DNA of 64,000 nt from Elusimicrobiota bacterium (GCA_027451985.1 DAIDHS010000005.1:267-64266); one strand, 5' to 3'; positions 836 through 63,347 are shown, numbered from the stretch's first letter. Notes: generated by a model from the sequence alone, not told the origin. Numbers and translations are program-made.

Positions 836-837
836 GG

Positions 838-38290: not shown

Positions 38291-38320
38291 TTGCTCGACG
38301 GGAGCGCGTTTCTGTAGAAT
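38291..38320 (+). promoter_or_regulatory. Sigma70-like promoter at the head of the radical-SAM array
   Basis: TTGCTC, an 18-nt spacer, then TAGAAT. It lies in the only AT-rich gap (38284-38359) upstream of the array. Confidence 0.4.
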
Positions 38321-38359
38321 ACCCAATCGCTGACAACCGACAACATAAAACGCCCTGAA

Positions 38360-40321
38360 ATGTCGACATCATCATTGCCAAAAATGCGCCCCAAGACGCT
38401 GGTTCTGCTTCCGGCTTGGCGGGGCTGGCGCGCGGACGAGGAGGCGTGGGTTTCCGCACTGCTAAGCCTACTCAGCAGGACTTTGGGCGCCGTGACCATC
38501 TACGATCCGGGATTCCCCGGAGAGCAACGAGGCGGGCTGCGATTTCCTTTGCGAGGCTGGAGAGACTTCCGTGAACAGTGCAAGGAGGCGATTTTTGAGA
38601 ATCCAATCGAGGTCATCATCGCGATCAGTGAAGCCGCGAAGCCTGAAAACCTCGATATTCTGGCCGGATGGGCGCCCGGTATTCCCCGTGTCTCCGTGTT
38701 CCTGGAATCGGATTTGTTCGGCCAGCGCCCGCCGCGCCTCAAGCCCGTTTCCGACTGTTCGGATATCATCCTGCATCGAGGAGACTGGAAGAGCGGTAGG
38801 GGCCGCGATGCGTGCGTGGAATTCGTGCGCGAGCCGATGGACGTGGTGGAGTCCATAAGCAAGCGCTTTTGCTTGAGGTGGACTCACGCGGACATTGAGC
38901 CTGAAAAAAAACAGCCGACTGTGGATGTCGTCACGGCTAAGAATGCCGTAGTGCGGCCGCGGGTTAGGGAACTCATTCGTGAGGCACGCCCGATTGCACA
39001 TGTGCGCCATATGGAGATTGGCGGGCACATAGAGACTAATAAAGGCCGCGCCGCGTTTTGGAATGAAGGACTGCGCCAGTCCTGCGCGGATTACGTGTTA
39101 TTTTGGGACGAGCCGCTGTGGTTGCCGGAGAAAGCCTTGGCCAGAATGCTGGAATACTTCAGCATGGGCGCGTCCTTAGCGGTGGTCTCCGCTCCATGCA
39201 GGGACGCGGATGACATGAAAGAAGTGCGCCGTTTAGCCGCGCTGCATCAAGCGTCTGGTGGACACCGAGAATGCGGCCGGTTCCTGCATGGAGATTTTTG
39301 GATGCTCCGCCGTAAAGCAATGAGGCAGGTCGGCTTTTTTGACGAGAGATTCCTCTGCCATCGTTTTGCGCTTTACGACTACGGGTTTCGTCTGCGTCAA
39401 TCCGGATTCCGGCTGTTTACCGCTACGGATGTGACGGCTTGGCGCATTGCTGGAAAAACGGATGAAACTCCTGGGACGCGCGGGCCCGAAGTGCGCGACT
39501 TGGGCCTCCTGCAGGAAAAGTGGTGTGAAAACGGAATTGGGGCTATACTAAGGCTTTCTCGCCCGGTCGGGCGAAAGGATCGGGCAGCCGCAGCTCGAGT
39601 TGCGGACGGGGGCTCGAACTTGGACATCGCAGAGCTGCTTGGAAGTCGCGGACTTCCCAGTGGCAATGATGCGCGCGCTCGCCTCGTGAATTTTAGCGCC
39701 GACTACGGGCGCGTGAGCCCCGAGATGAAAATCTTGATGGATGAGTCGTTGCGCGAAACCGAGCGGCGGAACGACGGTTTCCGCCGGGCCATGGAAGAGC
39801 GGTCAGAACGGCTCAGTCAGGAGTTCCGCAAGACTTTGGAAGAGCGGTATGACCGGCTAATCCGCGAAATCCGCAAGACTGTTGATGAACGGCACGATCA
39901 TTTGGTCCGCGATGTTTGGAGCGCGGCGGAAAGTCTGCGCGAACAATCTAATCAGATGCAGCGCGACATCCAGAAATCCATTAGGCCTGAATTGGCCACC
40001 CTGCTGTTCCACCTGCAAAAGCAAGAATCTAAAATTCAAGAAGGGAGGCTTGAAAGCCATGCTCGGGCTTTTGGATTGCATGAAGACTTAGTGAAGCGAT
40101 GTGGCAAACTCGGCAGCGAATTGGGAAAAATCGCCGCCCAGTTTGAAACCTTGGGGACTGAATCGTTGGGCACGATCTTAAACACCCTTCAAGCCTCGCT
40201 AGCCGCATTAAGACGGGAGCCTCTTCCGGGCCTTAAGGACGGCAAGGCTGGTGCAGCCAACGGAACCAAAATGAAAAAAACAGAGCAGACAGATAGTTCC
40301 GTCCTCCGCGCAAATGGGTAG
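38360..40321 (+). CDS. GT-A/GT2-like glycosyltransferase-domain protein with a C-terminal coiled-coil repeat region
   Basis: The central region resembles GT2: NKGRAAFWNEGLRQSCADYVLFWDEPLWLPEKAL and GDFWMLRRKAMRQVGFFDERF...DYGFRLRQSGFRL. The C-terminal about 200 aa are charged heptad-like and include 15-aa repeats. Confidence 0.55.
   Translation: MSTSSLPKMRPKTLVLLPAWRGWRADEEAWVSALLSLLSRTLGAVTIYDPGFPGEQRGGLRFPLRGWRDFREQCKEAIFENPIEVIIAISEAAKPENLDILAGWAPGIPRVSVFLESDLFGQRPPRLKPVSDCSDIILHRGDWKSGRGRDACVEFVREPMDVVESISKRFCLRWTHADIEPEKKQPTVDVVTAKNAVVRPRVRELIREARPIAHVRHMEIGGHIETNKGRAAFWNEGLRQSCADYVLFWDEPLWLPEKALARMLEYFSMGASLAVVSAPCRDADDMKEVRRLAALHQASGGHRECGRFLHGDFWMLRRKAMRQVGFFDERFLCHRFALYDYGFRLRQSGFRLFTATDVTAWRIAGKTDETPGTRGPEVRDLGLLQEKWCENGIGAILRLSRPVGRKDRAAAARVADGGSNLDIAELLGSRGLPSGNDARARLVNFSADYGRVSPEMKILMDESLRETERRNDGFRRAMEERSERLSQEFRKTLEERYDRLIREIRKTVDERHDHLVRDVWSAAESLREQSNQMQRDIQKSIRPELATLLFHLQKQESKIQEGRLESHARAFGLHEDLVKRCGKLGSELGKIAAQFETLGTESLGTILNTLQASLAALRREPLPGLKDGKAGAANGTKMKKTEQTDSSVLRANG
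39794..39928 (+). repeat. In-frame 45-nt tandem repeat (two clear units plus one degenerate) encoding EERSERLSQEFRKTL / EERYDRLIREIRKTV / DERHDHLVRDVWSAA
   Basis: Units 39794-39838 and 39839-39883 match at 33 of 45 positions by hand alignment. The third unit is recognisable only at the protein level. Confidence 0.6.
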
Positions 40322-41483
40322 GATGAATCCGCGCCTCAGCACGATTTTCGAGCTTCTCGGCGAGCGGGTCAGTTCGGGCCTCGCGCGCCTGGATGAAAAG
40401 AAGGACGGCCAGCCAATTCGCGAACTGCACCTGGAATTGACCCACCGCTGCAACCTCAAATGCGTCATGTGCCACCACTGGGAAATGCCCTTCAAAGACA
40501 GGGAGTCGGTCAAGCGCGAGATGGACTTGGCGCAAATTCGCGCCTTCGTCGAAGGCTCCGAGAGGCTTAAAGACGTCGAGATTGTGGTCTTGACCGGCGG
40601 CGAGCCGTGGCTTCGGGCCGATATCGTGGACATTGCCGCGTTCTTGTCCGGGCACTTTCCGAAGGCCTCGCTCGGCATCCTGAGCAATTTCTGGAACACG
40701 GAGATGGTGCGCCGCCGCCTTAACGATTTGCGGGCGCGCGGCGTTAAAAATTTGTGGCTCGGCTCATCCCTTGACGGCCTCGAAGAGACGCACGACGATG
40801 TGCGCGGACAAAAAGGCGCCTTCAAGGGCTTGATGGAAACCGCGCGCATGATGCGGGACGAGTTCCCGGACGTGCACTTCAGCTTCAGCTTCACCATCAC
40901 GCCCAAAAACTATCGCGAGCTTTGGCCCACTTATCAGCTCGTTTCGGGAATGGGGCTGTGGTTCGGGGCCCAGATGGTGGTCGAGCATCAGAAGTTCGAG
41001 GCCCCGGAGACGTTCTCGTGGACCGACGCGCAGATTGCCGAGGTCGAGGACCAGATCGAGAAAATCCTGCTTCATCTGGCCGAAGAAAACGGAGCCTTGG
41101 CGCGCCTCATTGGAGGCAAGGATCGGGACTCCTTGTGGCTTTGGACGAGGCTTCTGTACTGGTGGTACTTGCGCAAATACGCGCGCAAGCCCGAGCGGTA
41201 TTTCAAGGATTGCTTGGCCGGCCAGAGATACGCCATGCTCAGCCCCGAGGGCGACCTGTTTTTTTGCCCGGTGAACAAGCACCGCACCGTCGGCAACGTT
41301 AAGGAAATGCCGTTCGATCAGATTTGGACCTCGCGGAAGGCTGGCGAAGAACGGAGCTACGTGGACTCCTGCCAATGCGACTGCTGGCTGAACTGCATCG
41401 CCAATCCGGTTCTGGATCGCGCCGTTGAACTCGGCACGCGCCCCGAACCGGCCCCGGCCGGTTCGGGAGGCCCTGCCCGGTGA
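40314..41483 (+). CDS. Radical SAM protein with SPASM/twitch-like C-terminal domain
   Basis: Motif LELTHRCNLKCVMCHHW (CxxxCxxC). The C-terminus reads CLAGQRYAMLSPEGDLFFCP...GNV...IW...CQCDCWLNC. The start overlaps the upstream stop; ATG 40323 is an alternative. Confidence 0.8.
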   Translation: MGRMNPRLSTIFELLGERVSSGLARLDEKKDGQPIRELHLELTHRCNLKCVMCHHWEMPFKDRESVKREMDLAQIRAFVEGSERLKDVEIVVLTGGEPWLRADIVDIAAFLSGHFPKASLGILSNFWNTEMVRRRLNDLRARGVKNLWLGSSLDGLEETHDDVRGQKGAFKGLMETARMMRDEFPDVHFSFSFTITPKNYRELWPTYQLVSGMGLWFGAQMVVEHQKFEAPETFSWTDAQIAEVEDQIEKILLHLAEENGALARLIGGKDRDSLWLWTRLLYWWYLRKYARKPERYFKDCLAGQRYAMLSPEGDLFFCPVNKHRTVGNVKEMPFDQIWTSRKAGEERSYVDSCQCDCWLNCIANPVLDRAVELGTRPEPAPAGSGGPAR

Positions 41484-44380
41484 AAGTCGCCCTGGTCCAG
41501 GCGCCCTACGGCTACCGAGGCCGGGAAGCCCCGCCTTTCTCCGTCGCCTGCTTGGCCGGTTATGTGCGCGGCCGGGGCCACGAGCCGGTGTCCGTCGATT
41601 TCAGCAACGCCCTTTATCACGCCAGCTCTCCGGAGTTGCGCGTCATGTGGAACGTGGACCGGTATTCATTCTGGGAGAATCCGGATGCCGTCGAGCGGCT
41701 GCTCCATGAAACCCGGCAAACCACGGACGCGCTCGTTCGGCGCATCTTGGACAGCGGCGCGCGCGTCGTGGGCTTCGCGACGCACACGACGTCTTTTTTG
41801 GCGAGTCTGGCGCTGGCCGAGCGGATCAAGCGCGAGGACCCATCGCGGCTCATCGTTTTTGGCGGCTACCAGTGCGCGCGCGAGAAAGCCGCATTTTCGT
41901 TCATGGCCGACTCCCGCGTCGACGGCGTCGCCATTGGGGAGGGAGAACAGACTTTGGTCGAAGCCTTGGCGGGCGTGGAACGCACGGGCCGGCTGCCGGC
42001 CATTCCCGGCCTCCTCGTCAAGGACGAGAAAGGGCGCGTCATCGACTCGGGCGACCGGGAGCCCATCATGGACATGGACTCGATGCCCTTCCCGGACTAT
42101 TCCGATTTTAAGGAGGACATACGGGCGGGGCTTTACTCCGATCCGCACCGCCTGGACGTCTTCGACGGCCGCAGCTGCGTGCGGCGCTGCGCCTTCTGCA
42201 ACGAGTGGCAGTTCTGGGGGCGGTTCCGTTCCCGCAGCGGGCGGCGCATCTTGGAAGAAATCAAGCATCAAATGGCGGAGCATCCGACCATCAATCATTT
42301 TTACTTTACAGGACTTCTCGTCAACGGTAACCTGCGCGAACTTTCGCGCTTTTGTGATTTGGTCTTGGAGAGCGGCCTCAAGTTCACTTGGGGCGGCCAA
42401 GCCATCATCCAGCCCGGCATGGACGGCAAGATGCTCAAGAAGATGGCCGCGGCCGGGTGCCGGTGGCTCGGCTACGGCGTCGAGAGCGGTTCGGAGGCGG
42501 TGCGTTGGCGCATCAACAAGAAGTTCACCAATGAGAACGCCTACAAGACGTTGCGCGCCACCGCTGAGGCCGGCGTCAAGGCTCAGATCAACGTCATGTT
42601 CGGCATGCCTAGCGAGACCAAAGACGAGTTTCAGCAAACGCTGTCATTCTTGACCCGCGTCAGGCCTTATTTGGACTCCATCCTGGCCAGCCAGTCGTTC
42701 TGCGTCATTGACAAGGATACGCCGCTGCATCAGCATCCCGAACGCTACGGAATCACGAACCATGATCACCACTTGTTCTGGGAGTCCAATGGCGGGGAAA
42801 ACAACTATGCCGAGCGCTTCCGCCGCTACGAAGAGTTCTGCAAATTGGCGCTGTTTTTGAAAGTTCCGGAGACCTCGGGCGTCCTCTCGCGCAAGCCGGA
42901 CAAATGGTTCTTGCTGGGTTCCTATTACGAGTACAGAAAGGAGTTCTCCAGAGCCATTCTTTGCTACCGGCGTTCGCTGTTGCGGGAATCGCTCGCCAAG
43001 GCTCAGCTGGCTGGCTTAGCGCGGTGCTACAGGGAGATGGGGAAGCCGGGAAAGGCCGCTGGGTACTTGAATCGGGCGCTGGCTCTGACTCCGCCGGGAA
43101 CTTCGGATCCGCAAGACGAAGAGTTGAGACGCGAACTCGCCGCGTGCGAGAAGGCGGCGTCTTCTTCGGCGCGGCAGCCCGAACCGGCAAAACCTCAAAT
43201 GAGCGAACGCGCGCTTAACGTGGCCCTGAATTATCGGGAATTCGAGCAGCGCAAGGACAAGCTGTTCTCGACGCCGCGCCTCGTCACTCTGGGCACGCAC
43301 AACGCCTGCAACGCCAAATGCGTGTTTTGCCTGGAGGGCAAGTATTCGCGCTTCAGCCTCGACCTCTATAAGAATTTTTTCGAGGCCAAGATGGGGCATT
43401 TCATCCGGGGCGCCGAAAAAGTCACGTTCACGGGCTTCGGGGAAATCCTGTGGGTGCCCGGCATCGAGGAGTTCTTGGACTACATCAATGAGACCCTCCC
43501 GGAGACGGAAAAAATATTCACGACTAACGGCACGCCCCTTCGCCCCGCGATTATCGAACGCATCGCCCAAAGCCGCTACGTGCTGCAGATCTCGCTGCAC
43601 GCCTCGCGCGCCGATTTGCACCAAAAGCTGACGCAATTGGACGGCCAGTTCGATCAAGTCATCGCGAACATCCGCGGTCTTGTCGATACGCGCGACCGGC
43701 TCAATCTCGGGCACCGCATCCATGTCGAACTGGTGAACGTCCTGACCAACGACAATCTTTCCGATCTTCCGGATTTCATGCGCTTGGCCTGGGACTTGCG
43801 CGTCCAGTCCGTGCGCTGCCAATACGTGACCATGTTTGTTCCCGACCACATCGTCATGTCGCCGTTCTTCAATCAGCGCTCGGCCAACGAGGCGGTCGAG
43901 GCGGCTGGGCACGCGGTGGAGGAGCTGCGCGCCCAAGACGTCTCCCGGCCGTTTCACGTTCAACTGCCGCCGCTTTTCGGCTCCCGCGCCAACCCGCAAA
44001 ATAGCGTCTGCTACGATCCCTGGCAGCATGTCTATGTCGAACTTCAGGGGTCGGTCATTCCTTGCTGCATGTGGGGGGACCACATCGGAAATTTGAAGAA
44101 GGGCGACGATTTGGACCAGGTGTGGAACAGCCCGTTCTACCAAGAGTTGCGCCGCGGCATGGCTTCCGGAGATCCGCACCCGTGGTGCAAGAGCTGCGTG
44201 CGCTACGCCGGCTACAACGTGGACAGCATTTTCTGCCACATCACCAACCGCCCGGAGGCGCAGAAGATGGTTTTGCAGGACGTGATGCGCCGAGGACTCC
44301 ATTTGGATGATGCGGACAGGGCCGCGGCGGCGAAGATGCTCGGCAAGGGAGCGCAGGCCGGCCCCGGGGTCCTGGCGTGA
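41480..44380 (+). CDS. Fusion protein: B12-binding (class B) radical SAM domain, TPR-like linker, then radical SAM/SPASM domain
   Basis: The N-terminus VKVALVQAPYG...VVGFATHT...IVFGGYQ is B12-domain-like, followed by the first cluster motif CVRRCAFC. The middle has TPR-like LGSYYEYRKEFSRAILCYRRSL...CYREMGKPGKAAGYLNRALAL. The second cluster motif is THNACNAKCVFC. A SPASM-like CYDPWQHVYVELQGSVIPCC...CKSC follows. GTGA overlap with the upstream gene. Confidence 0.8.
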   Translation: MKVALVQAPYGYRGREAPPFSVACLAGYVRGRGHEPVSVDFSNALYHASSPELRVMWNVDRYSFWENPDAVERLLHETRQTTDALVRRILDSGARVVGFATHTTSFLASLALAERIKREDPSRLIVFGGYQCAREKAAFSFMADSRVDGVAIGEGEQTLVEALAGVERTGRLPAIPGLLVKDEKGRVIDSGDREPIMDMDSMPFPDYSDFKEDIRAGLYSDPHRLDVFDGRSCVRRCAFCNEWQFWGRFRSRSGRRILEEIKHQMAEHPTINHFYFTGLLVNGNLRELSRFCDLVLESGLKFTWGGQAIIQPGMDGKMLKKMAAAGCRWLGYGVESGSEAVRWRINKKFTNENAYKTLRATAEAGVKAQINVMFGMPSETKDEFQQTLSFLTRVRPYLDSILASQSFCVIDKDTPLHQHPERYGITNHDHHLFWESNGGENNYAERFRRYEEFCKLALFLKVPETSGVLSRKPDKWFLLGSYYEYRKEFSRAILCYRRSLLRESLAKAQLAGLARCYREMGKPGKAAGYLNRALALTPPGTSDPQDEELRRELAACEKAASSSARQPEPAKPQMSERALNVALNYREFEQRKDKLFSTPRLVTLGTHNACNAKCVFCLEGKYSRFSLDLYKNFFEAKMGHFIRGAEKVTFTGFGEILWVPGIEEFLDYINETLPETEKIFTTNGTPLRPAIIERIAQSRYVLQISLHASRADLHQKLTQLDGQFDQVIANIRGLVDTRDRLNLGHRIHVELVNVLTNDNLSDLPDFMRLAWDLRVQSVRCQYVTMFVPDHIVMSPFFNQRSANEAVEAAGHAVEELRAQDVSRPFHVQLPPLFGSRANPQNSVCYDPWQHVYVELQGSVIPCCMWGDHIGNLKKGDDLDQVWNSPFYQELRRGMASGDPHPWCKSCVRYAGYNVDSIFCHITNRPEAQKMVLQDVMRRGLHLDDADRAAAAKMLGKGAQAGPGVLA

Positions 44381-54858: not shown

Positions 54859-55516
54859 GTCGGAGCGTGAGATGCAGGGGTGCTGGCGGTGGCTGGGAAA
54901 AACAGGCGTCCGCCTGAATGGAGAAAAAATTATCTACATCGATCCCATCAGCGTGGAATCGGGCGCCCCTAAGGCCGACCTCATCCTCCTGACCCATGGG
55001 CACGAGGAGCATTTTTCTCCAGCGGACGTGACGAGGGCGGCAGGTCCTCAGACCATCGTGGCCGGACCTGCGGCCTGCATAGGACTTTTTCGCCTCAACC
55101 AGTTGCCTTTCGAGGCGGGGGAATCCAGAACAATTTTGGGCGTTTCCGTTACGGCCACGCCCGCTTATGGCTTGGACAATTCGCGTCATCCGAAAAGCGC
55201 CGCGGGATTGGGATATCTCATTGATCTGGGCGGCATGAGGATTTTCCATGCCGGTGACACGGCCGCCGTACCGGAGTTGCGCGCTCTTAAGGCGGACGCG
55301 GGCTTTCTGCCCGTAGGGCCCGGGCTTATGTCCGCCCGAGAGGCGTCGGCGCTGGCGCGGGACATGGGGCTCCGCGCGGCTGCTCCTACTCACATTGATC
55401 CGGGCTCAAAGGAAGAACAGGATTTTTTCGCGGAAATCGAAAGCATGGGCATTGCAGCGTGGGCGGCGGCGGATATTTTTTCGGCTTGCGGTTTGACGGC
55501 GGCCCGGGGAGGCTGA
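54851..55516 (+). CDS. MBL-fold metal-dependent hydrolase (UPF0173-like)
   Basis: Motifs are IIYIDPIS, ADLILLTHGHEEHFS, FHAGDT and APTHID. The start is uncertain (ATG 54851 or the downstream Met at 54872). Confidence 0.7.
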   Translation: MPKSEREMQGCWRWLGKTGVRLNGEKIIYIDPISVESGAPKADLILLTHGHEEHFSPADVTRAAGPQTIVAGPAACIGLFRLNQLPFEAGESRTILGVSVTATPAYGLDNSRHPKSAAGLGYLIDLGGMRIFHAGDTAAVPELRALKADAGFLPVGPGLMSAREASALARDMGLRAAAPTHIDPGSKEEQDFFAEIESMGIAAWAAADIFSACGLTAARGG

Positions 55517-55517
55517 T

Positions 55518-56882: not shown

Positions 56883-57433
56883 AAATCTACTTAAGCAGCA
56901 GTCTCTCGGAGGAGGACAAGCCGTTGCGTGAGAGGCTTGTCCAAGTCGCCGCGGATTACGGCGTCACGATCGTGTCCGGCCCGAGGCCGTGGCCTGCCCA
57001 AGACGCCGTGCCTCCTGAGGTCGCCGAAGCCATCGACTCCGCGGACTTCGCTTTTTTTTGGATTTCCGCCGATGGCCCGGACGTCTCATGCATCAACTTG
57101 GAAGCGGGCTATATCCGAAACTCCGCACGGCGCCTTCCTTTTTTAATTTTTTCGCCCAACGGCTTGGAACCCGCCGGTTGCCTGAAATACCGGCCCTTCA
57201 TTGTTTTTTATCTTCGCGACGCCCGCATTACCCTTGAGCAGATGTGGAATCCCATCCATCATGAATACCGCGAGCGGCCGCAGATGGCGGCGGCCATTCA
57301 TGGCGTCCTAATCGCCCTTGTCGGCATGTTGCTGATGCGCCGCGCTCCCGAAGCGCCGGCTTCTGAGGCGGAGGAAAAACGCCAAGATCAGCTGCGCGAT
57401 GCGGCGGCGGCCTTGCGCGGGAGCCAGCCGTGA
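56879..57433 (+). CDS. Hypothetical small protein with a C-terminal TM anchor (possible Rossmann-like TIR / nucleoside deoxyribosyltransferase-like fold)
   Basis: Begins MKIYLSSSLSEED, with AEAIDSADFAFFWIS, LEAGYIRNSARRLPFLIF, and a TM segment AAAIHGVLIALVGMLLM. The fold guess comes from motif resemblance only. GTGA overlaps occur at both ends. Confidence 0.5.
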   Translation: MKIYLSSSLSEEDKPLRERLVQVAADYGVTIVSGPRPWPAQDAVPPEVAEAIDSADFAFFWISADGPDVSCINLEAGYIRNSARRLPFLIFSPNGLEPAGCLKYRPFIVFYLRDARITLEQMWNPIHHEYRERPQMAAAIHGVLIALVGMLLMRRAPEAPASEAEEKRQDQLRDAAAALRGSQP

Positions 57434-58833
57434 CGCCGTCTCGAACCGAAGCTTCGTTGGCGTCTTTAGATTCCGGGCTTTCGCCTCAGGATGTTGCTTT
57501 GCGGCACGAAAAACGGGCGCGCGAGCATTATCTGCGGGGAGACTATCCCTCCACGGTCGAAGACCTCAAGCTCTGCCTGGGAACCGGCGTTGTCCCCGAG
57601 CATAAGGATTTGCGGATGCGCTTGCTCATCATGCAGAGCTTGCGCCGCTTCGGCAAACAAGACGAAGCCTCCGCGGCTCTTCGGGAGATGGAAACCCGCT
57701 ACGGGAAAAGCCGCGAAAAATATATCCAGAACCTTTTGCTTAACGAAAAGGAAATCCAAGAGGGCCGCGTCAAGATCGAGTCGTATCCCACGCGCCTGAC
57801 CATCCGGCCGACCAGCCGTTGCTCCGTCCACTGCATCATGTGCACTTTTTGGAAAGAAACGCCCTGGGATATGCCGCAAAAGACTTTAGACGAGGTGGCC
57901 GATCTGTATCCTTTCATGGAAGACATCTTGTGGCAGGGCGGCGAGCCTTTCGAGATGGAGCGCGGCGTCTTGGAGCGCATCCTCTTGCGCGGGCGGGACT
58001 ATCCCCGAATGCTGCAGAATTTCATCACCAACGGCCAGCACATCGACAAACGGTGGGCCGAGATTCTGGTAAGCATGAATGTTCATATGAAGATATCCAT
58101 CGATGGGACCACGCCGGAGGTTTACGAGAAAATCCGGGTCAAATCGAGCTTCGCAAAGATCATCGCCTCGATTGACAACCTTAACAGTGAGATGGCGCGG
58201 CAGAACCGGCGCATCGGCATGTGGATCCATATGGTGGTCCAGCGCTTCAATTACCACCAGATCACGGACATGATCGAGTTCGCCCGCAAGCACCGCTTCG
58301 ACGGGGTGGCCCTGAGCCCGATGGAGGGGGATCTCTACCGCAAAATCGACGTCTTTAACTACGGTGACTCGGAGATTTGGCGCTCCATCGAGGAACAGCG
58401 CGCGCGGGCCCGGCAGATGTGCCTGAACTACGGGATTTATCTGGAAGACAACATGCCGCCGCCGCCCTCGCCGGACGACGCGCCTCATCCCATCGACGAA
58501 GAGGAAAACCAGAAGCGTTTTTCGCTCTATCCCATGCCTTTTGAAGACGGCGCGCGCTACGTTTCTAAGGAGTACTCATATTTCTGCCTTTCCCCCTGGA
58601 AAAACATGATCCTGCGAAACGGCGGCGGCGTGCTGCCCAACTGGCACTGCGGCGAGCGCTACATCGGGAGCATCCATGAAAATTCGCTCCTGGAAATTTG
58701 GAACGGCGAGCCCATGCAGAAGGTGCGGCGGGGCATCGTGGAGAGGCAATTCGGCGGCGTGTGCCGCCATTTTTGCCTTTCCGGGGCTTTGATGGAAACC
58801 TGGAAGCACCATATGGAGTGGTACTGGTCCTGA
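57430..58833 (+). CDS. Radical SAM/SPASM domain protein with a TPR-like N-terminus
   Basis: Motif IRPTSRCSVHCIMCTFW. SPASM-like CLSPWKNMILRNGGGVLPNWHCGERYIGSIHENSLLEIWNGEPMQKVR...CRHFC. The N-terminal about 100 aa are helical and TPR-like. Confidence 0.8.
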   Translation: MTPSRTEASLASLDSGLSPQDVALRHEKRAREHYLRGDYPSTVEDLKLCLGTGVVPEHKDLRMRLLIMQSLRRFGKQDEASAALREMETRYGKSREKYIQNLLLNEKEIQEGRVKIESYPTRLTIRPTSRCSVHCIMCTFWKETPWDMPQKTLDEVADLYPFMEDILWQGGEPFEMERGVLERILLRGRDYPRMLQNFITNGQHIDKRWAEILVSMNVHMKISIDGTTPEVYEKIRVKSSFAKIIASIDNLNSEMARQNRRIGMWIHMVVQRFNYHQITDMIEFARKHRFDGVALSPMEGDLYRKIDVFNYGDSEIWRSIEEQRARARQMCLNYGIYLEDNMPPPPSPDDAPHPIDEEENQKRFSLYPMPFEDGARYVSKEYSYFCLSPWKNMILRNGGGVLPNWHCGERYIGSIHENSLLEIWNGEPMQKVRRGIVERQFGGVCRHFCLSGALMETWKHHMEWYWS

Positions 58834-58854: not shown

Positions 58855-60459
58855 ATGAGCCATAAAGCCGAAATCTTTCTCCTGCAAATGCCCCAGGCTT
58901 GTCCTGAGCCCAATATCGCCCTGGCGCAGCTCTACGCTTACGCAAAACAGGAAGGATTCGAGACGCGGGTCATGGACGTCAGCATAGAGCTCTACCACCG
59001 GCATAAAGCTGCCTCCGCCAATTTGTGGGCCGATGAAACGTGGTCGATTTGGATGGATCAGGCTTTTGTCTCCAGGTTCCTGGCGGCAGACAAGGCTTGG
59101 ATGGAGGAGCGGTTCCTTAAGGACATCCTTGCGGCGCCAAAGCCCGTCGTGGGTTTTTCGGTCAGCGGGCCGTCCTTGCGTGCCAGCCAAGAGTTGGCGC
59201 GCTGGATCAAGTCCGCGCGGCCGGACGCTTTAGTGGCCGTCGGGGGACAGGTGTTTGCCGTGGAGCCGTTTTTCTACCGGCAGGCCCTGGAGGACGCTTG
59301 CATCGACGCCGTCATTTTCAGCGATGGAGAGGAAACGCTTTGCGAGCTGGCGTCCCTTTACGGGGAGGGCCGGGATTGGGACGGTTGCCGCGGACTTTAC
59401 GTGCGCAACCCCGAGGGCGGCTTTCGCTTCACGGGTGAGCGCCCGCTCTTGAACCTGGACGACCTGCCGTTCGCCGATTACGCGCCTTTCAACATGGGGC
59501 TCTACGGCAGCAACCATGTGAGCGCCCACGATTTGGTTCTGATGACCAGTCGCGGCTGTGTGCGCCGGTGCTCCTTCTGCGGCAACCGGACGGCGTGGAA
59601 GGGCTTTAGGCAGATGAGCGGAGAAAGGGTGCACGCCGAAATCCAACATCAGCGGCGGGTCATGCCGAGCCTTTCCCACGCCGACAGCGAAATCAAGTTC
59701 TACGACCTTCTCATCAACGGCGACATGCGGAAAATGATCCGCATGGCCGAGCTTCTGGCCGCGGATTCGCAGCCGCCACTGGCCTGGAAAGACGTCAACG
59801 CCGTGGTCCGACCCGAGATGACCTACGAGGCCTGCCGCAAGCTCTATGAGGCAGGCTGCCGCATCCTGATTATCGGCCTCGAATCGGGCTCGCAGAAAGT
59901 CTTGAATGCGATGGACAAAGGCCAGACCGTGGCCCAAATGAAGGAGGTTCTCAAAAACGCCCATCGCGCCGGCCTCAAGGTTCGGGGAAATTTCATGTTC
60001 GGGCACCCCGGCGAGACCGAGGAGGATTTCGCGCTCACCATGGACTTTTTGAGGGAGATGCACCCGTACATCTACCAAGCCTACCCCAGCTATACGTTCA
60101 CACACTTGGAAGGCCGTCTGGCCCAGAACCCGGAGAAATGGGGCGTGCAGAAGAACCAGCATTACCTGTACTGGGAATCGGATGACGGCAGCAGCACCTT
60201 CCCCAAGCGCCTGGAGCGCTACAAGGCCTTCCGCGAGTTGGCCGTTTCGTTGGACAAGCTCCCGCAAGGCGACGGCCTCGTGCTTTCCTTGGATGCCTAT
60301 ATGCACTTTAATTTCGGCGGCTACTATGAGAATTTGGGCAAGCCGAAGGAAGCGCTCGATCACTATTGGGAATACCTGCGGGAAGATCCGGCTAACGCGT
60401 TCGTTAAGGAAAAGATCCTGAAGCTCTCAAGGGCCCTGACGGCCGTCGGCGCCGCTTGA
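58855..60459 (+). CDS. B12-binding domain radical SAM protein (class B)
   Basis: Motifs are IFLLQMPQACPEPNIALAQLYAYAKQEGFE, VGFSVSG, VAVGGQVF, cluster motif TSRGCVRRCSFC, IGLESGSQKVL, and YLYWESDDGSSTFPKRLERYKAF. Confidence 0.8.
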   Translation: MSHKAEIFLLQMPQACPEPNIALAQLYAYAKQEGFETRVMDVSIELYHRHKAASANLWADETWSIWMDQAFVSRFLAADKAWMEERFLKDILAAPKPVVGFSVSGPSLRASQELARWIKSARPDALVAVGGQVFAVEPFFYRQALEDACIDAVIFSDGEETLCELASLYGEGRDWDGCRGLYVRNPEGGFRFTGERPLLNLDDLPFADYAPFNMGLYGSNHVSAHDLVLMTSRGCVRRCSFCGNRTAWKGFRQMSGERVHAEIQHQRRVMPSLSHADSEIKFYDLLINGDMRKMIRMAELLAADSQPPLAWKDVNAVVRPEMTYEACRKLYEAGCRILIIGLESGSQKVLNAMDKGQTVAQMKEVLKNAHRAGLKVRGNFMFGHPGETEEDFALTMDFLREMHPYIYQAYPSYTFTHLEGRLAQNPEKWGVQKNQHYLYWESDDGSSTFPKRLERYKAFRELAVSLDKLPQGDGLVLSLDAYMHFNFGGYYENLGKPKEALDHYWEYLREDPANAFVKEKILKLSRALTAVGAA

Positions 60460-60481
60460 ACTTGGGACTTTGCGGCGACTC

Positions 60482-62119
60482 ATGATGCGCAATCCCTTGC
60501 GGGCGCGCTTGATTCTTGCGGCGTGCGCCGGCGCGGCGGCCGTCCTCGTGAGCGCGGGACTGGGGTGGTGGGGATGGGCGCGCCTCTCCAAGACCGCCGC
60601 GACAAGCTTTGCCACGGACAAGCAGCTTCTGTGGCAGCGGGAGATGGATGAGCCGCTTTTCCATCTCGTGAATCGCAACGGGCGGCAATTCCTGGTGCAT
60701 ACGTATCCGGACACGAGGTTTTCCACCGATCCTGAAAATATTCCGCTTGAGAAAGAAGCGGGAAAAACCCGGCTGCTTTTTATCGGAGAATCGAGCGCCG
60801 GCTTATCGGCCACGGCCGTCCGCCGCATCATCGGCAGCCACGCAGGCTTGAAAAAATTCGAGGTGCTCGACTGCGCCGCCAATGGGGGCAGTTTGGTGAT
60901 GGTGGAGGACCGGTTCAGGGAATGCTCCCGGTACTCGCCCAATATCATCGTTCTGAGTTTCGGACATAACCTGTTTTATCCCTTGAGGCCCATTTCCGCG
61001 TTCTCCTACTGGGCGTTCAGGGTCGCGCGGCGCAGCCCGCTCCTAAGCCGTTTCGCGGCCGTGCTGCATGACAATTATTTCATGTCTCGCTGGGATTCCT
61101 TCGATAATCCCAGCGTCCGCTGGCGGCGCCTCGACGAATTTATCGCGCAGTTGGCCGCCTTCACGCGCGCGAAGCACGAAGCGCTCATCTTGTGCACAAA
61201 TGCGGTCAACCTGTGGGTGCCCCCGGAACTTCCGCCCGATAAAAAAAATGAAATTCTCTATGACGGCGCGTATTTGAAGGCGAGGTATCTCTACGCTTCG
61301 GGCCGCCATAAGGCGGCCATTATGCTTTTAAGCGGCCTCGTCCAAGGCAGACCTTTCGCGTGGTGGCGGTGGACGCTCGGGACGTGGCTCTACCGCCAAG
61401 GAGATTATGCGCGGGCGGCTTTCTTCTTGTCCGAAGCGAGAAATCTCGATCAGGCGCACGGCCGCGCCTCCAGCGCCGTCAATGATCTCATTCGGGAATC
61501 CGCCTATCGCTATGGTGCGCGCCTGGTGGACGCCGATCTCATCGTTCGAGACGAGGCGCCGCATGGGATTCCCGGCTGGGGGCAATTCATCGATCAGGGA
61601 CACCTCAACGATCCGTCCTACCTGCGGCTGGCCGCTGCGATTCTGGGCGCTGTCAAAGGCGGCAGCGAGCCGGATACAAAGGTTCGCTGGGTGATTAATT
61701 TGTCTTTAATCCAACAGATTCAGCACCCGCTTATTCCTATTTGGCAGGGTGAAGACATCCGGTCCAGGTTGTGGCTGGCCATGAGCTACGCGGTGCAGGG
61801 CCGCCTCGGAGAGGTGCTGGCGCGCGGAGAGTCGGCCGCCGCCTCTGCCGCGCCCCGGGGGCCGCAGCGCGCCGTGATCTTCGTCGCCTTTGCCCAGGCC
61901 TGCTGGCGCGCTGGGAAAACGAGTGCGGCCCTTCGCTTTAATGAAGACGCGGCCCATGAGGATCCGGGGTGGGAGGAGCCGCCGGTTCAGCGGGCCTTGT
62001 TTGACATCGGCCTTGGGCGCCGCAAGGACGCCGCGCGGCTTTTGCGCGGGGTCTTGAAAATGAATCCGTCCCGGCTTGACGCGGCCTATTTCCTTAAAAA
62101 GGCGTCAGGAGCTTCTTGA
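60482..62119 (+). CDS. SGNH/GDSL-like hydrolase domain protein with a TM anchor and TPR-like C-terminus
   Basis: N-terminal TM LILAACAGAAAVLVSAG. The SGNH blocks are LLFIGESS (I), DCAANGGS (II), LSFGHN (III) and FIDQGHL (V). The C-terminus is TPR-like. The start ATG at 60482 is preferred over the TTG at 60470. Confidence 0.65.
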   Translation: MMRNPLRARLILAACAGAAAVLVSAGLGWWGWARLSKTAATSFATDKQLLWQREMDEPLFHLVNRNGRQFLVHTYPDTRFSTDPENIPLEKEAGKTRLLFIGESSAGLSATAVRRIIGSHAGLKKFEVLDCAANGGSLVMVEDRFRECSRYSPNIIVLSFGHNLFYPLRPISAFSYWAFRVARRSPLLSRFAAVLHDNYFMSRWDSFDNPSVRWRRLDEFIAQLAAFTRAKHEALILCTNAVNLWVPPELPPDKKNEILYDGAYLKARYLYASGRHKAAIMLLSGLVQGRPFAWWRWTLGTWLYRQGDYARAAFFLSEARNLDQAHGRASSAVNDLIRESAYRYGARLVDADLIVRDEAPHGIPGWGQFIDQGHLNDPSYLRLAAAILGAVKGGSEPDTKVRWVINLSLIQQIQHPLIPIWQGEDIRSRLWLAMSYAVQGRLGEVLARGESAAASAAPRGPQRAVIFVAFAQACWRAGKTSAALRFNEDAAHEDPGWEEPPVQRALFDIGLGRRKDAARLLRGVLKMNPSRLDAAYFLKKASGAS

Positions 62120-63347
62120 ACTCCGCTTTTTTGCCCGGATAGGTTTTGTCGTAATAGCTTAGAACCGCTTTTTCTAAATCGGAACTCCGAAGTTGAATGG
62201 GCTCATCGGCTAGGGCCCTCAGGAAGACGCCTTGTTCAAAATGTTCACCGGTTGAAACGTAGTAAGAGAGGTCGCCCAGTTTCCCGGAATCCTCACCCAG
62301 GCCCTCGGCTTCCCTGACGAACGCCTTTGCCAAAAAATGGCCTGTGAGACCGAGGGTTTTGCTGTAGGCAGATTCCGTTCGGACCCGGCGCCAGCGCCAT
62401 TGCGAGACAGGAGCGATCCATCCCCGATGGGAAAGTCCGTGCGCGACGGCCATGGCCATCAGCCATTGTCCGCGCAGGGATGGGTGCACATAATCGATAA
62501 GGCAGCGGGGAATGTCCGGTCTGCATTCTCCGGAGGCGCTGAAGAATCGCCCCGCGTCAACAAACAATACACCCGGACTCAGAATAGAGCGAAGAAACTT
62601 GTTGTAGGGAGGAGGGGACGCGGGGTTGTACAAAATGGGTGCGTTGACCTGGCTTACGAGAACGACGTGGACGGAGCGGCGTTCGGCGAGAGAAACCATT
62701 TTACGGACGTTCTGCTCATAAAGCGGCATGGTGGCCTCTGGATCAACCCGGGCTATCGGCATGTATTGTGCGGCGAGTCGCACAATGGGGAAATAGTCGC
62801 GCAGCCAAAACAGGAATTCACCGAAATTTTTGCCGAGGTGATTTTGGAGCAGCCGCAGACGGCTGTATAGCTGCTCGTTATTTCCTTCGTAGAGCACGAG
62901 CAGGTCGGGGTGGTAGTTGAGAACTTCCTTAACGAGTGCCAAGTCCCGCGAGCTGTCCGAACCGGAAACGCCGGAGTTTATGACTTCAACGCGCCGTCCC
63001 GGAAGGGTGTCCTTAAGAATGAGACCCAGCCACTCCGGGTAGCCTGCCCGTGGATAGAACGGATAACCTTCCGTCGTGGACTGACCGATGCAGAAGATTC
63101 GATACGTTCCTGGCGGTTTTGCCGCTGGAAATTTCTTCTGGTGCGCGGCGTCGACAAGAATGACTTTTGAGTTGGGAATTTCCCATGTTTTTCCATTCCG
63201 AGTTTCTTGGTGATAGAGCGGTCGCTGGGAAATCATCCATAAGAGGCGCGGATCCGGCGCGGGAAGCCCGAACCTGAGGAAGTGGAGAGGGATGAGAATC
63301 GCCGCCAAGCCCGCACCGGCTAGGGCCAGGCGAAGAAGAGCCCTCAT
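62094..63347 (-). CDS. SGNH/GDSL-like hydrolase family protein (membrane-anchored)
   Basis: N-terminal TM. The SGNH blocks are IFCIGQSTTEG (I), INSGVSGSDS (II), LYEGNNE (III) and IDYVHPS (V). It is convergent with the previous gene, with a 26-nt 3' overlap. Confidence 0.7.
   Translation of the reverse strand: MRALLRLALAGAGLAAILIPLHFLRFGLPAPDPRLLWMISQRPLYHQETRNGKTWEIPNSKVILVDAAHQKKFPAAKPPGTYRIFCIGQSTTEGYPFYPRAGYPEWLGLILKDTLPGRRVEVINSGVSGSDSSRDLALVKEVLNYHPDLLVLYEGNNEQLYSRLRLLQNHLGKNFGEFLFWLRDYFPIVRLAAQYMPIARVDPEATMPLYEQNVRKMVSLAERRSVHVVLVSQVNAPILYNPASPPPYNKFLRSILSPGVLFVDAGRFFSASGECRPDIPRCLIDYVHPSLRGQWLMAMAVAHGLSHRGWIAPVSQWRWRRVRTESAYSKTLGLTGHFLAKAFVREAEGLGEDSGKLGDLSYYVSTGEHFEQGVFLRALADEPIQLRSSDLEKAVLSYYDKTYPGKKAEFKKLLTPF

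Follow-up and report, generated by a model that had tools for sequence, protein, structure and literature searches.

A radical-SAM-rich gene array in an Elusimicrobiota genome with a possible role in tailoring a cell-envelope glycan

The window analysed here, a 64-kb stretch of DNA from an Elusimicrobiota bacterium, contains an array of radical-SAM genes that all run in one direction, are tightly packed and are translationally coupled. Upon translation, 12 proteins of this plus-strand chain carry exactly 13 CxxxCxxC motifs, the same set as given in the initial annotation, and Pfam confirms that the open reading frames (ORFs) encode radical-SAM domains: PF04055 matches 12 of 12 proteins (E 7e-06 to 7e-29), and its gathering score is exceeded in 11. 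The exception is g09 (50610-51611; 26.7 vs 29.5), which, although below that score, is a clear paralog of the compact-family members described below. Only two other CxxxCxxC matches occur in long ORFs of the window outside the array motifs, namely, one in a housekeeping HemW-like gene (31184-32284) 6 kb upstream, and CGDKCGGC, the Cys/Gly-rich tail at the start of g14. The genes had been described as chained by start/stop overlaps of 4-13 nt; such overlaps were found, together with five short gaps of 1-52 nt, and intergenic gaps along the g01-g18 chain are at most 76 nt. The proposed promoter, TTGCTC-N18-TAGAAT, is present in the sequence and matches 8 of 12 consensus positions, but a promoter scan at this site reported nothing.

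The operon probably starts at 37639, one gene earlier than its supposed leader, g01. This probable first gene, g00 (37639-38283, on the plus strand like all genes up to g18), encodes a conserved 214-aa protein with no Pfam or NCBIfam match; its orthologs adjoin those of g01, lying directly upstream of them in loci L087 (57% identity) and L086 (38%) despite a differing upstream context. The GT2-like character assigned to g01 (38360-40321) stands in part: PF00535 matches residues 224-339 above its cut-off (26.5 vs 23.3 bits), but the match is weak and partial, and the orthologs in L087 and L086 (53% and 44% identity) have no Pfam match on record. The remainder of g01 includes a C-terminal helical-repeat (coiled-coil-like) tail, and no TM segment was found in it. 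Radical-SAM and SPASM domains are combined in g02 (40314-41483; CNLKCVMC; PF04055 59.8 bits, PF13186 30.6 bits), whose top NCBIfam match is NirJ (78.9 bits vs a cut-off of 515). In g03 (41480-44380), a B12-binding radical-SAM half (CVRRCAFC) is fused via a TPR linker to a radical-SAM-SPASM half (CNAKCVFC), with Pfam matches to PF02310, two PF04055 stretches, TPR_2 and PF13186; in L007 each half is a gene of its own, and in L005 both are fused with g02. A small cytoplasmic protein, g04 (44377-45114), is modelled as a right-handed beta-helix (AF2, pLDDT 92.9), with PL3 pectate lyase, polygalacturonases, AlgG and tailspikes as top Foldseek PDB matches; it is kept inside the arrays of at least seven loci (dN/dS 0.16). 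The SPASM-type g05 (45104-46462; CQLHCPFC; PF04055 51.5 bits, PF13186 39.7 bits) has an uncertain start codon, the longest ORF running from 44846, and shares 81% identity with its ortholog in L003. The B12-binding g06 (46459-48426; CVWQCRFC; PF02310 47.8 bits, PF04055 70.7 bits), with a possible ORF start at 46375, bears a helical C-terminal extension of ~250 aa and matches TIGR03975 best (145 bits vs 282). Next, g07 (48479-49654; CNADCVFC) is again of the SPASM type (PF04055 62.1 bits, PF13186 41.2 bits), and PqqE and BlsE are its nearest PDB sequences (E ~1e-4).

Five compact, twitch-like paralogs follow, interspersed with other genes. The first, g08 (49651-50613; CNYRCPYC; PF04055 38.3 bits; NF038073 (STM4011) 75.8 bits vs a cut-off of 200), yielded an AF2 model (pLDDT 84) that Foldseek matches to anSME with a TM-score of 0.56. 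The second, g09 (CNYRCSYC; NF038073 68.9 bits), is 80% identical to its L003 ortholog. For the third, g10 (51604-52452; CNFRCSYC; PF04055 45.2 bits; dN/dS 0.044), we infer that the start lies after the g09 stop. The adjacent g11 (52440-53762) resembles the B12-binding radical-SAM proteins (PF02310 17.9 bits) and has lost its CxxxCxxC; orthologs in L012, L051 and L055 retain CPWSC(H/R)FC or CLWSCRFC, whereas those of the window, L002 and L003 do not have the motif. It is probably a non-cleaving subunit; its dN/dS is 0.106. The fourth paralog, g12 (53782-54858; CNYRCSYC), starts with a Cys/Gly-rich tail (MGSCGTGGCSGCG) conserved in L002, L003, L012, L051 and L055, and the fifth, g14 (55518-56882; CNYRCSYC), with a CGDKCGGCGGGCG tail conserved in L002 and L003, in addition to a Pro/Ala/Glu-rich insert. 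Between them lies g13 (54851-55516), a hydrolase of the metallo-beta-lactamase fold (PF12706 51.4 bits, PF13483 51.0 bits) that recurs in the arrays of L002, L003, L012, L017, L047, L051, L055 and L069. The 184-aa protein g15 (56879-57433; dN/dS 0.17) has one C-terminal TM helix (near residue 134) and no family match in Pfam or NCBIfam; orthologs are found in L002 and L003, and a g15-like gene occupies the same position in L051. The array closes with the SPASM-type g16 (57430-58833; CSVHCIMC; PF04055 52.7 bits, PF13186 27.8 bits), which has a TPR-like N-terminal region, and the B12-binding g17 (58855-60459; CVRRCSFC; PF02310 44.2 bits, PF04055 75.2 bits), for which HpnJ is the top NCBIfam match (129.5 bits vs a cut-off of 577.6).

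Downstream, two SGNH hydrolases and a TPR protein had been reported, of which the second hydrolase, g19 (62094-63347, minus strand; PF13472 48.4 bits), and the TPR protein g20 (63344-63937, minus strand; several TPR Pfam matches) are well matched. The SGNH domain of g18 (60470-62119) is divergent, with Lipase_GDSL_2 below threshold (22.4 bits vs 32.9), a GES block and SGNH-TPR homologs being present and TPR_19 and TPR_12 above cut-off. Both g18 and g19 are membrane-anchored by an N-terminal TM helix, and an ortholog of g18 follows g17 in L003. Judging from gene order in the orthologous genome L083, the locus probably extends beyond base 64000 as a second, convergent operon: in L083, such an operon follows the array, contains two more radical-SAM genes and ends with P0226, the ortholog of g19, which is likewise the last gene of its operon; the position of g20, upstream of g19, is occupied there by two TPR proteins. 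The array is real and operon-like, but the notion of a single operon for one product oversimplifies it, given the extra upstream gene, the convergent operon and a division into two separable modules (g02-g10 and g11-g16/17).

The 13 domains fall into the three families recognised earlier. The PF02310 threshold is exceeded in g03, g06 and g17, with the motif-less g11 below it (17.9 vs 32.1), and that of PF13186 in g02, g03 (C-terminal half), g05, g07 and g16. The compact paralogs (g08, g09, g10, g12 and g14) share the invariant Cys 28, 32 and 35 plus four more at 232, 250, 277 and 282. NF038073 is the top curated model for all five, yet at 62-76 bits vs 200, matching near full length in four and as two stretches in g14; the g08 family numbers 596 representatives at E<=1e-30. 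No array protein reaches a curated NCBIfam cut-off, PDB relatives are distant only, and the literature search returned no description, in agreement with the initial statement that no characterised pathway matches. The weak top matches are mixed (RiPP methyltransferase, HpnJ, BchE, NirJ).

The array is no isolated case. The same three radical-SAM families are combined in about 45 loci from Elusimicrobiota, Omnitrophota and relatives, where as many as 18 motifs occur in 20 kb, and the window array belongs to this widespread, modular family. Orthologous Elusimicrobiota arrays are 51-65% identical, and all genes are under purifying selection (dN/dS 0.04-0.19 against the L003 ortholog cluster). The three families are also joined to each other within single polypeptides, and therefore act together.

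Pfam domains among 73 non-radical-SAM neighbours include GDSL/SGNH (11), TPR (11), methyltransferases (7), PMT_2 (6) and GT2 (5). By a seed-based count of 47 multi-radical-SAM loci, 18 have homologs of glycosyltransferases (GT), PMT_2, Wzm/Wzt or YdjC, 17 have SGNH, 12 have beta-helix proteins and 33 have any of these; roughly 14 have no partner family within the fetched DNA, many being short contigs or filled by the array. Directly after the L004 array comes a PMT_2 (GT-C) gene, as in L013 and L047; downstream, L004 further has an HpnJ-like gene for a B12 radical-SAM enzyme, a GT2 fused to a methyltransferase (top match ArnC-type, 63 bits vs 529) and a YdjC deacetylase (187 bits to HpnK, cut-off 233). 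ABC-2 permease and ATPase pairs lie beside or within the arrays of L017, L039, L060 and L061, with Wzt_C in L061 and a NodU-type carbamoyltransferase in L039. Giant beta-helix proteins precede the arrays of L007 and L020, and in Omnitrophota SGNH(-TPR) genes sit between radical-SAM genes. Omnitrophota proteins 1,200-1,620 aa long with the architecture GT2-GT2-GT4/GT1-radical SAM, which public records label 'glycosyltransferase' only, also match the compact-family profile in their C-terminal domain (E ~1e-66 to 1e-78). The gene of one such fusion, P0147, lies directly 3' of an ABC_tran+Wzt_C gene and has as neighbours GT2, GT4 and two Wzy_C genes as well as genes for a GFO/IDH oxidoreductase, a further radical-SAM protein and a homolog of the SGNH-TPR proteins.

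It is about an even chance that the locus encodes a tailoring toolkit for a cell-envelope glycan, whether a surface polysaccharide (O-antigen-like or other) or a sugar linked to a polyprenol. Of the three earlier hypotheses (RiPP, envelope glycan and membrane lipid) this is the best supported, having gained most from the GT fusions, Wzm/Wzt, PMT_2, SGNH-TPR and beta-helix proteins. The g04 model is a confident beta-helix whose nearest solved folds are all polysaccharide lyases, hydrolases or epimerases. Every SGNH(-TPR) protein examined has a single N-terminal TM anchor, which makes the membrane or periplasm the probable destination of the product. Counting against glycan tailoring are the weak GT2 assignment of g01, the mixed nature of the weak top family matches, the roughly 14 of 47 loci with no partner family in the fetched DNA, the occurrence of the glycosyltransferase fusions in Omnitrophota, outside the window's own lineage, and the facts that SGNH proteins can be lipases and that neither the beta-helix fold nor TPR repeats are glycan-specific. 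A further point against it is that, next to the array, the 64-kb window lacks genes for Wzm/Wzt, WaaL/Wzy, an initiating phosphoglycosyltransferase or a flippase, and likewise nucleotide-sugar genes. The earlier link to KdsD, YfhO and phosphohexomutase genes found no support, as the L086 operon, in a different upstream context, has no KdsD, and the YfhO-like and phosphohexomutase genes lie ~16 kb from the operon with mostly housekeeping genes in between.

Beginning from the observed domain identities, conservation, purifying selection, fusions and homologous-array neighbourhoods, we infer a substrate class, individual reactions and an order of steps as follows. Sugars would first be built up on a lipid carrier, on the cytoplasmic side, with g01 (GT2-like, coiled-coil tail) and glycosyltransferases encoded elsewhere as candidates. 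The cytoplasmic, oxygen-sensitive radical-SAM enzymes would then take hydrogen from unactivated sugar carbons. For the B12-binding g03 N-terminal half, g06 and g17, methyl addition or ring rearrangement seems most likely (cf. GenK, HpnJ), and for the SPASM and compact twitch-like enzymes oxidation, epimerisation, deoxygenation or cross-linking; BtrN, SpeY, DesII, BlsE and AbmM carry out such reactions on sugars. The beta-helix protein g04 may bind or process the polymer, and the TPR segments together with the motif-less g11 may keep the enzymes together. Following export, acyl groups could be added or removed by the membrane-anchored SGNH and TPR proteins (g18-g20), for which a periplasmic orientation is predicted. 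If true, this would be an uncharacterised radical-chemistry toolkit for a cell-surface sugar polymer, on a scale not documented for glycans; against it, no polysaccharide in the literature searched has a comparable amount of radical chemistry.

Alternatively, the enzymes might methylate, cyclise or couple hydrocarbon chains, be it those of a membrane lipid, of a hopanoid-like lipid or of a polyprenol, much as Tes, Grs, Gms, Gmm and Mss act on tetraether lipids; the SGNH proteins would then serve in lipolysis or acyl remodelling. Archaeal and bacterial pathways to membrane-spanning lipids (Tes, GrsA/B, Gms, Gmm, Mss; PMC11214058) indeed have the same mix of B12-binding and SPASM/twitch enzymes acting repeatedly on one envelope molecule, there are weak matches to the lipid-biosynthesis B12 radical-SAM model TIGR04072, HpnJ, HpnR and Tes, and GDSL/SGNH proteins are membrane-anchored. 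The hopanoid side-chain pathway HpnH/HpnI/HpnJ/HpnK has a GT2, a YdjC deacetylase and a B12-binding radical-SAM enzyme, the last of which rearranges a lipid-linked amino sugar; HpnJ is the top model for g17 and the L004 B12 enzyme, and HpnK-like YdjC and HpnJ-like genes adjoin the L004 array. However, all scores fall below cut-offs, far below for Tes (18-27 bits vs 450) and HpnJ (129-147 vs 578) and at 187 vs 233 for HpnK; neither a squalene-hopene cyclase nor HpnH was found, and the array has many extra radical-SAM families. Lipid tailoring is unlikely, given that the 25 commonest of 85 neighbour families include no squalene/hopene cyclase, polyprenyl synthase, acyltransferase, ether-lipid or other lipid-synthesis gene, while glycosyltransferases are the direct fusion partners and the exporters resemble Wzm/Wzt, the type that handles polysaccharides.

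The enzymes could instead methylate, epimerise or cross-link a ribosomal peptide or a large protein, e.g., a beta-helix protein encoded elsewhere. Proteusin (polytheonamide; PoyB/C/D) and other multi-radical-SAM RiPP clusters likewise hold several B12 C-methyltransferase-like and SPASM-type enzymes per operon, making many modifications on one polymer, and the RiPP C-methyltransferase subfamily TIGR03975 and ApyD are the top NCBIfam matches of three array B12 proteins (g03 N-terminal half, g06 and g11). SPASM enzymes are typical maturases of peptides; anSME, which acts on protein, is the solved fold nearest to the compact family; TPR segments could bind protein; and in L007 the array has a 38-aa ORF behind it. 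Still, these scores are below cut-off (145 vs 282), operon Pfam scans revealed no PqqD/RRE leader-binding domain, leader peptidase or peptide exporter, and no precursor gene fits in the g01-g18 chain because of its small gaps. There is no conserved small ORF across ~45 arrays, and the recurring partners are glycan enzymes. The window lends no support to the earlier RiPP hypothesis, which is quite improbable. Even less probable is a small cofactor or secondary metabolite, such as a modified tetrapyrrole or an aminoglycoside- or nucleoside-like natural product. Radical-SAM-rich neighbourhoods are already known from groundwater Elusimicrobia, where up to 13 radical-SAM genes, some B12-fused, lie beside group VI nitrogenase (NifHDK) paralogs, and a modified tetrapyrrole was proposed as their product (Meheust et al. 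2020, bioRxiv 10.1101/765248). Phylum and habitat are the same, g02 has the tetrapyrrole enzymes NirJ, AhbD and AhbC as top NCBIfam matches, the B12 enzymes match BchE weakly, and antibiotic-pathway sugar enzymes (SpeY, DesII, AbmM, BlsE) are among the structural or sequence neighbours. In contrast to those suites, NifH, NifD and NifK paralogs are absent from the window; no NifH-type Walker motif occurs in its 64 kb or in 79 related loci checked, and ~70 related loci, including one from GWA2_69_24, have no Nif paralog within 10 kb of a compact radical-SAM gene. The only tetrapyrrole gene nearby is the HemW-like one, and a soluble cofactor would leave the membrane-anchored SGNH-TPR proteins, GT-C enzymes and Wzm/Wzt exporters unexplained.

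Compared with known glycan systems, the proposed envelope-glycan tailoring comes close to ABC-transporter-dependent O-antigen assembly, in which Wzm/Wzt cooperate with multi-domain polymerising glycosyltransferases, e.g., E. coli O9a WbdA/WbdD and Klebsiella O-antigens (PMC11231755). Relatives of the compact domain form the C-terminal module of multi-glycosyltransferases near Wzt (Wzt_C) and Wzy_C, and ABC-2 permease/ATPase pairs flank homologous arrays. Such a glycan is completed in the cytoplasm and therefore possibly within reach of radical-SAM enzymes. The chain-length regulators WbdD and WbbB have a coiled-coil tail, which the tail of g01 may resemble. On the other hand, none of these systems is described with radical-SAM modules, let alone 13, and both Wzm/Wzt and a ligase are absent from the window. 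Three-component extracytoplasmic glycosylation relies on a polyprenol-phosphate GT2, a flippase and a GT-C, e.g., ArnC/ArnT (PMC11127046). PMT_2 genes after the arrays of L004, L013 and L047, and the ArnC-like GT2 and deacetylase of L004, recall this arrangement, but ArnC scores are low (63 bits vs 529), no flippase was identified, and the window's only GT-C-like gene, the sub-threshold YfhO-like one, is 16 kb distant. GenK, BtrN, SpeY, DesII, AprD4, BlsE and AbmM are antibiotic-pathway enzymes acting on sugars. They belong to the same classes as the array enzymes (class B methylases; twitch/SPASM dehydrogenases, lyases and decarboxylases), and SpeY, DesII and AbmM are among the Foldseek neighbours of g08, as is BlsE among the sequence neighbours of g07, yet identities are 10-16% and TM-scores 0.3-0.56. 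These enzymes occur singly or paired in small-molecule clusters, whereas the arrays comprise 13-18 domains along with envelope proteins.

Translation of the co-directional chain of ORFs between 38360 and 62119 yields 13 CxxxCxxC motifs in 12 proteins; every motif listed in the initial annotation is reproduced, and four genes of the stretch carry none. Successive genes of the chain overlap, start with stop, by 4-13 nt, apart from five places where a short gap occurs. In Pfam, all 12 motif proteins match PF04055, 11 of them above the gathering score, while the product of 50610-51611 reaches 26.7 against a required 29.5. The radical-SAM array is confirmed and cannot be due to chance. Among the long ORFs elsewhere in the window, there are two further CxxxCxxC matches, namely one in a HemW-like gene and one in the N-terminal tail of g14 (the genes from 37639 to 63937 are here numbered g00-g20, of which g00-g18 lie on the + strand and g19-g20 on the - strand). 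The HemW/HemN-like radical-SAM gene (31184-32284, +; CSVKCFYC, HemN_C domain) is unrelated to the array and has housekeeping neighbours (SPFH, ValRS, Era, SpeA).

The array comprises three radical-SAM families. In the B12-binding enzymes, i.e., the N-terminal half of g03, g06, and g17, PF02310 scores 35.1, 47.8, and 44.2 bits, respectively, against a cut-off of 32.1, and lies N-terminal to the radical-SAM core. The SPASM domain (PF13186/TIGR04085) is recognized in g02, the C-terminal half of g03, g05, g07, and g16 (27.8-43.3 bits; cut-off 21.5). The third family consists of five compact paralogs (g08, g09, g10, g12, and g14) with 30-38% identity among them, which reach 17-18 bits with the SPASM models and thus stay below threshold. 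Common to all five are the three cluster Cys and four further invariant Cys near the C-terminus. The AlphaFold2 (AF2) model of g08 (pLDDT 84) has a generic SPASM/twitch radical-SAM fold, with anSME as the nearest structure (TM 0.56), followed by MoaA, SuiB, AbmM, SpeY, and DesII; the four invariant C-terminal Cys and the anSME/SuiB/SpeY-like fold lead us to regard the compact paralogs as twitch-like.

None of the 20 proteins g01-g20 reaches any curated cut-off in NCBIfam scans. The best models for the B12 enzymes are the RiPP C-methyltransferase subfamily, ApyD, HpnJ, and BchE, at roughly one quarter to one half of the required score; for example, TIGR03975 (RiPP radical SAM C-methyltransferase) gives 132.7, 145.3, 117.1, and 48.5 bits against a cut-off of 281.85. 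For the SPASM enzymes, the best models are NirJ/Ahb, a tungsten-cofactor maturase, and 'Geo_metal', and for the five compact paralogs the uncharacterized STM4011 family (NF038073; 61.6-75.8 bits, cut-off 200). Sequence searches of the PDB returned remote matches only, and nothing useful for g01 and g04.

The closest related loci are found in metagenome-assembled genomes (MAGs) of Elusimicrobiota, and in one of these (L003) g02 to g18 occur in the same order with 65-92% amino-acid identity. Every gene has a dN/dS of 0.04-0.19, including g04, g13, and g15 as well as g11, which lacks the motif. When g08 was used as query in a word-indexed search, 66 clusters were returned, in which all organism-named matches belong to Elusimicrobiota or Omnitrophota and the sole functional name is 'radical SAM protein'. 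Scanning species-representative genomes with a compact-family profile gave 231 relatives, hosted by Elusimicrobiota, Omnitrophota, Planctomycetes-labelled MAGs, Sumerlaeota, and Endomicrobiales; those in Patescibacteria are distant and occur as single copies. An exhaustive profile search gave 2,227 representatives (one per cluster at 50% identity) at E<=1e-10, of which 596 also satisfy E<=1e-30. About 45 of the fetched loci contain at least four co-directional radical-SAM genes of the same three families, the densest reaching 18 motifs per 20 kb; counts of arrays and of their partners are approximate, as the final gene caller reproduces the chain of the window but errs in some loci. Three Endomicrobiales MAGs (L043, L054, and L060) are among the carriers of arrays. 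The recurrent core of these arrays is a module formed by g02-g10, whereas the six genes from g11 to g16 (52440-58833) stand without g02-g10 in two loci, L051 (10885-) and L055, and the array of the window is therefore considered a composite of two modules.

At the upstream end, g00 (37639-38283, +) is a 214-aa ORF without family match. Together with g01, it is kept directly upstream of g02 in two relatives (g00 identities of 57% and 38%) that have differing upstream neighbours, so that the operon most likely starts at 37639 and g00 is probably its true first gene. The promoter proposed initially, TTGCTC-N18-TAGAAT, does exist, but it lies between g00 and g01, i.e., downstream of g00, it matches the consensus at 8 of 12 positions, and a promoter scan reports no site. 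The proposed GT2-like leader g01 retains a weak, partial GT2 match of 26.5 bits, the remainder being a helical-repeat tail without membrane segment; a single-query genome scan with g01 found no relative, and its orthologs were located through the neighbours of g04. At the downstream end, two SGNH hydrolases had been proposed, of which g19 clearly is one, whereas g18 is mainly TPR with a divergent SGNH block; each has one N-terminal membrane anchor. In DATLUA010000014.1, which carries an orthologous locus (L083 1-11257, equivalent to sequence beyond base 64000 of the window), the g19 and g20 orthologs end a second, convergent operon. This operon encodes a B12 radical-SAM protein (443 aa), a Sel1-SPASM radical-SAM protein (645 aa), several TPR proteins, and one SGNH/TPR protein, and a GT2 lies on its far side; by this comparison the system of the window probably continues past base 64000 and is cut by the window end. 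The suggested link to nearby KdsD, YfhO, and phosphohexomutase genes was not borne out. Of two relatives, just one keeps KdsD as a neighbour, the upstream context being different in L086, and about 16 kb of mostly housekeeping genes lie between the operon and the phosphohexomutase and YfhO-like genes, so that none of the three was retained as a member. The YfhO label is itself tentative, since the 1,000-aa ORF concerned (19412-22414, -) matches YfhO at its C-terminal end only, below threshold (27.6 bits vs 28.5), and has no NCBIfam match.

Within the operon, three further features stand out. The AF2 model of g04 is a right-handed beta-helix (pLDDT 92.9), with pectate lyase, polygalacturonases, the alginate epimerase AlgG, and phage tailspike depolymerases as the nearest solved folds. 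The second feature, g11 (52440-53762, +), has a class B architecture, but its PF02310 match is below threshold and the cluster motif is absent. The motif is lost (the sequence reads CHWSHPSC) in the window and in the related loci L002 and L003, and is kept in the orthologs of L012, L051, and L055. As dN/dS is low (0.106) despite this loss, g11 is regarded as conserved rather than decaying in this clade and as a probable non-cleaving subunit; a pseudo-enzyme or a scaffold would fit. Lastly, the compact paralogs g12 and g14 carry N-terminal Cys/Gly-rich tails (53782-53830, MGSCGTGGCSGCG, and 55518-55570, MGGCGDKCGGCGGGCG; both +) that are conserved in orthologs of other genomes and may serve as an additional metal site or as a carrier handle.

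Fusions and neighbourhoods of the related proteins point to glycan assembly. In Omnitrophota, the compact domain forms the C-terminal module of proteins of 1,200-1,620 aa (P0109, P0147, P0154, and P0162), where it follows GT2-GT2-GT4/GT1 domains; public annotation names these fusions only 'glycosyltransferase'. One such fusion (L081 10001-14719) comes directly after an ABC ATPase with an O-antigen-recognising Wzt_C domain, and is surrounded by GT2, GT4, two Wzy_C genes, a sugar-type oxidoreductase, another radical-SAM gene, and an SGNH-TPR homolog. Elsewhere, compact, B12, and SPASM domains are also joined to each other in single polypeptides, so that the three families act in one process. Among the orthologous Elusimicrobiota arrays, that of L004 is followed by a PMT_2 (GT-C) enzyme, an HpnJ-like B12 enzyme, an ArnC-like GT2-methyltransferase fusion, and a YdjC deacetylase (187 bits to HpnK), and PMT_2 enzymes are next downstream of the L013 and L047 arrays. 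ABC-2 permease and ATPase pairs are located beside or inside the arrays L017, L039, L060, and L061; the Elusimicrobia array L039 includes such a pair together with a NodU/CmcH-type carbamoyltransferase (8056-9789). Wzm/Wzt exporter genes are present at these four loci and at L081, and are absent from the 64-kb window. The weak GT2 match of g01 is the only glycosyltransferase candidate of the window, and relatives have both the multi-glycosyltransferase fusions to the compact domain and GT2, GT4, and GT9 neighbours. In a set of 73 neighbours that are not radical-SAM genes, the Pfam families seen most often are GDSL/SGNH, TPR, methyltransferases, PMT_2, and GT2, and at least one glycan-type, SGNH, or beta-helix partner occurs in 33 of 47 arrays (an approximate, seed-based count on the fetched DNA). 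In Omnitrophota arrays, SGNH(-TPR) genes are embedded between radical-SAM genes, and all those examined have one N-terminal helix anchor, from which the SGNH catalytic domains are predicted to face the periplasm. Giant beta-helix proteins of 1,660 and 1,817 aa are encoded directly upstream of two arrays (L007 1038-6020 and L020 559-6012, respectively); they are made up of numerous parallel beta-helix repeats with Cys residues, and their initial turns resemble g04. By eye, the N-terminus of the L007 protein looks signal-peptidase (S24/S26)-like and is followed by hydrophobic segments, and a similar segment is seen deeper within the called ORF of L020. Another related array, L009, contains a radical-SAM domain fused to an aldo/keto reductase domain (10837-12654), with a 2,095-aa multi-glycosyltransferase upstream and a GT9 heptosyltransferase-like gene downstream.

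Several independent lines thus agree with a locus that tailors a glycan, a reading to which we give an even chance. From the observed domain content, conservation, fusions, and neighbourhoods, we infer the substrate class and each of the following reactions. Sugars would be built up on a lipid carrier on the cytoplasmic side of the membrane, in the manner of ABC-transporter-dependent or three-component pathways, and the oxygen-sensitive radical-SAM enzymes could reach them there. Methylation or rearrangement of sugar carbons would probably fall to the B12 enzymes, and oxidation, epimerisation, deoxygenation, or cross-linking probably to the SPASM and twitch enzymes; g11 and the TPR segments may keep the enzymes assembled. 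Once the product is exported, acyl groups would be added or removed by the SGNH and TPR proteins. A more specific and rather doubtful proposal is that surface polysaccharides of Elusimicrobiota and Omnitrophota are remodelled during or after polymerisation by 10-18 radical-SAM enzymes, with the compact family as signature enzyme. Such remodelling would cover C-methylation, epimerisation, deoxygenation, and perhaps the cross-linking of sugars through carbon-carbon or thioether bonds, and would be a glycan counterpart of RiPP maturation, i.e., a class of carbohydrate chemistry not yet described. Against a glycan substrate, no exporter, ligase, initiating transferase, or nucleotide-sugar genes were found beside the array in the window, g01 gives no more than a weak GT2 signal, the fusions with glycosyltransferases belong to a different phylum (Omnitrophota), and about 14 of the 47 loci are without any partner family. 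SGNH, beta-helix, and TPR domains are, moreover, not exclusive to glycan biology.

Other substrates were weighed against the same data. The enzyme mix is also common to archaeal tetraether pathways (PMC11214058), but tailoring of a lipid is unlikely: lipid models score far below cut-off, e.g., 18-27 bits against 450 for the tetraether lipid synthase Tes (NF045702) and 129.5 (g17) and 110.1 bits (g03) against 577.6 for HpnJ (TIGR03471), no cyclase gene that would give HpnJ a hopanoid context was found in the window, and lipid genes are not found among the 25 commonest of the 85 neighbour families. A RiPP or protein substrate, which would fit the best weak family matches and the anSME-like fold, is held to be quite improbable, as Pfam and NCBIfam scans of g01-g20 found no PqqD/RRE, leader peptidase, or peptide exporter; there is also no precursor gene, the chain having gaps of at most 76 nt and no small ORF being conserved across arrays. 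Synthesis of a cofactor or small metabolite, including the tetrapyrrole idea attached to Elusimicrobia radical-SAM suites by Meheust et al. 2020, is judged very improbable. The GKGGxGK motif (NifH Walker motif) was found neither in the window nor in the 79 related loci fetched at that point, for which reason the tetrapyrrole idea is ranked low; nitrogenase paralogs are absent from the window and from the surroundings of about 70 related loci, the families Oxidored_nitro and Fer4_NifH do not figure in the 25 found most often among the neighbours, and the membrane-anchored partners argue against a cofactor as well.

In the literature searched, which covered STM4011, radical SAM in combination with O-antigen or Wzt, and Omnitrophota and Elusimicrobiota radical-SAM clusters, the system is not described. 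The enzyme superfamilies are known, and earlier work mentions in passing that Elusimicrobia have neighbourhoods rich in radical-SAM genes, but neither this type of array nor its link to glycan assembly is described there. We regard the locus as a cluster for tailoring a glycan or a natural product, with a density of radical-SAM genes that is unprecedented; no member of this type is characterized. To our knowledge, radical-SAM sugar chemistry so far comprises single steps in antibiotic or hopanoid pathways. If the proposed glycan role is true, bacteria would be making large-scale use of radical chemistry to diversify surface sugars, and three large unannotated radical-SAM families would become targets for function discovery. 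This would also partly explain why groundwater Elusimicrobia and Omnitrophota are so rich in radical-SAM genes, and would suggest that ultra-small, uncultivated bacteria bear new glycan structures. Even with a lipid or protein substrate, a conserved modular system of 13-18 radical-SAM domains without a characterized member would be a worthwhile target for enzymology.

Some minor observations concern small ORFs and the remainder of the window. In L007, a 38-aa basic ORF (15341-15457; MLRKKKKGNRRKTARYRKPTLTKHGPLEAGAGAFSTLY) follows the last compact radical-SAM gene, and the same sequence is present there in L008; no small ORF was seen at this position in other arrays. As precursor candidates, this ORF and a 99-aa ORF in L005 were both rejected, neither being conserved and the latter corresponding to an MBL fragment. 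The GC content of the window is 64-69% in 1-18000 and 57-63% in 18000-64000, and the former part encodes signalling proteins (a Ser/Thr kinase, two tandem GGDEF proteins, and a hybrid histidine kinase) together with a FabD-like acyltransferase and a fatty-acid hydroxylase.
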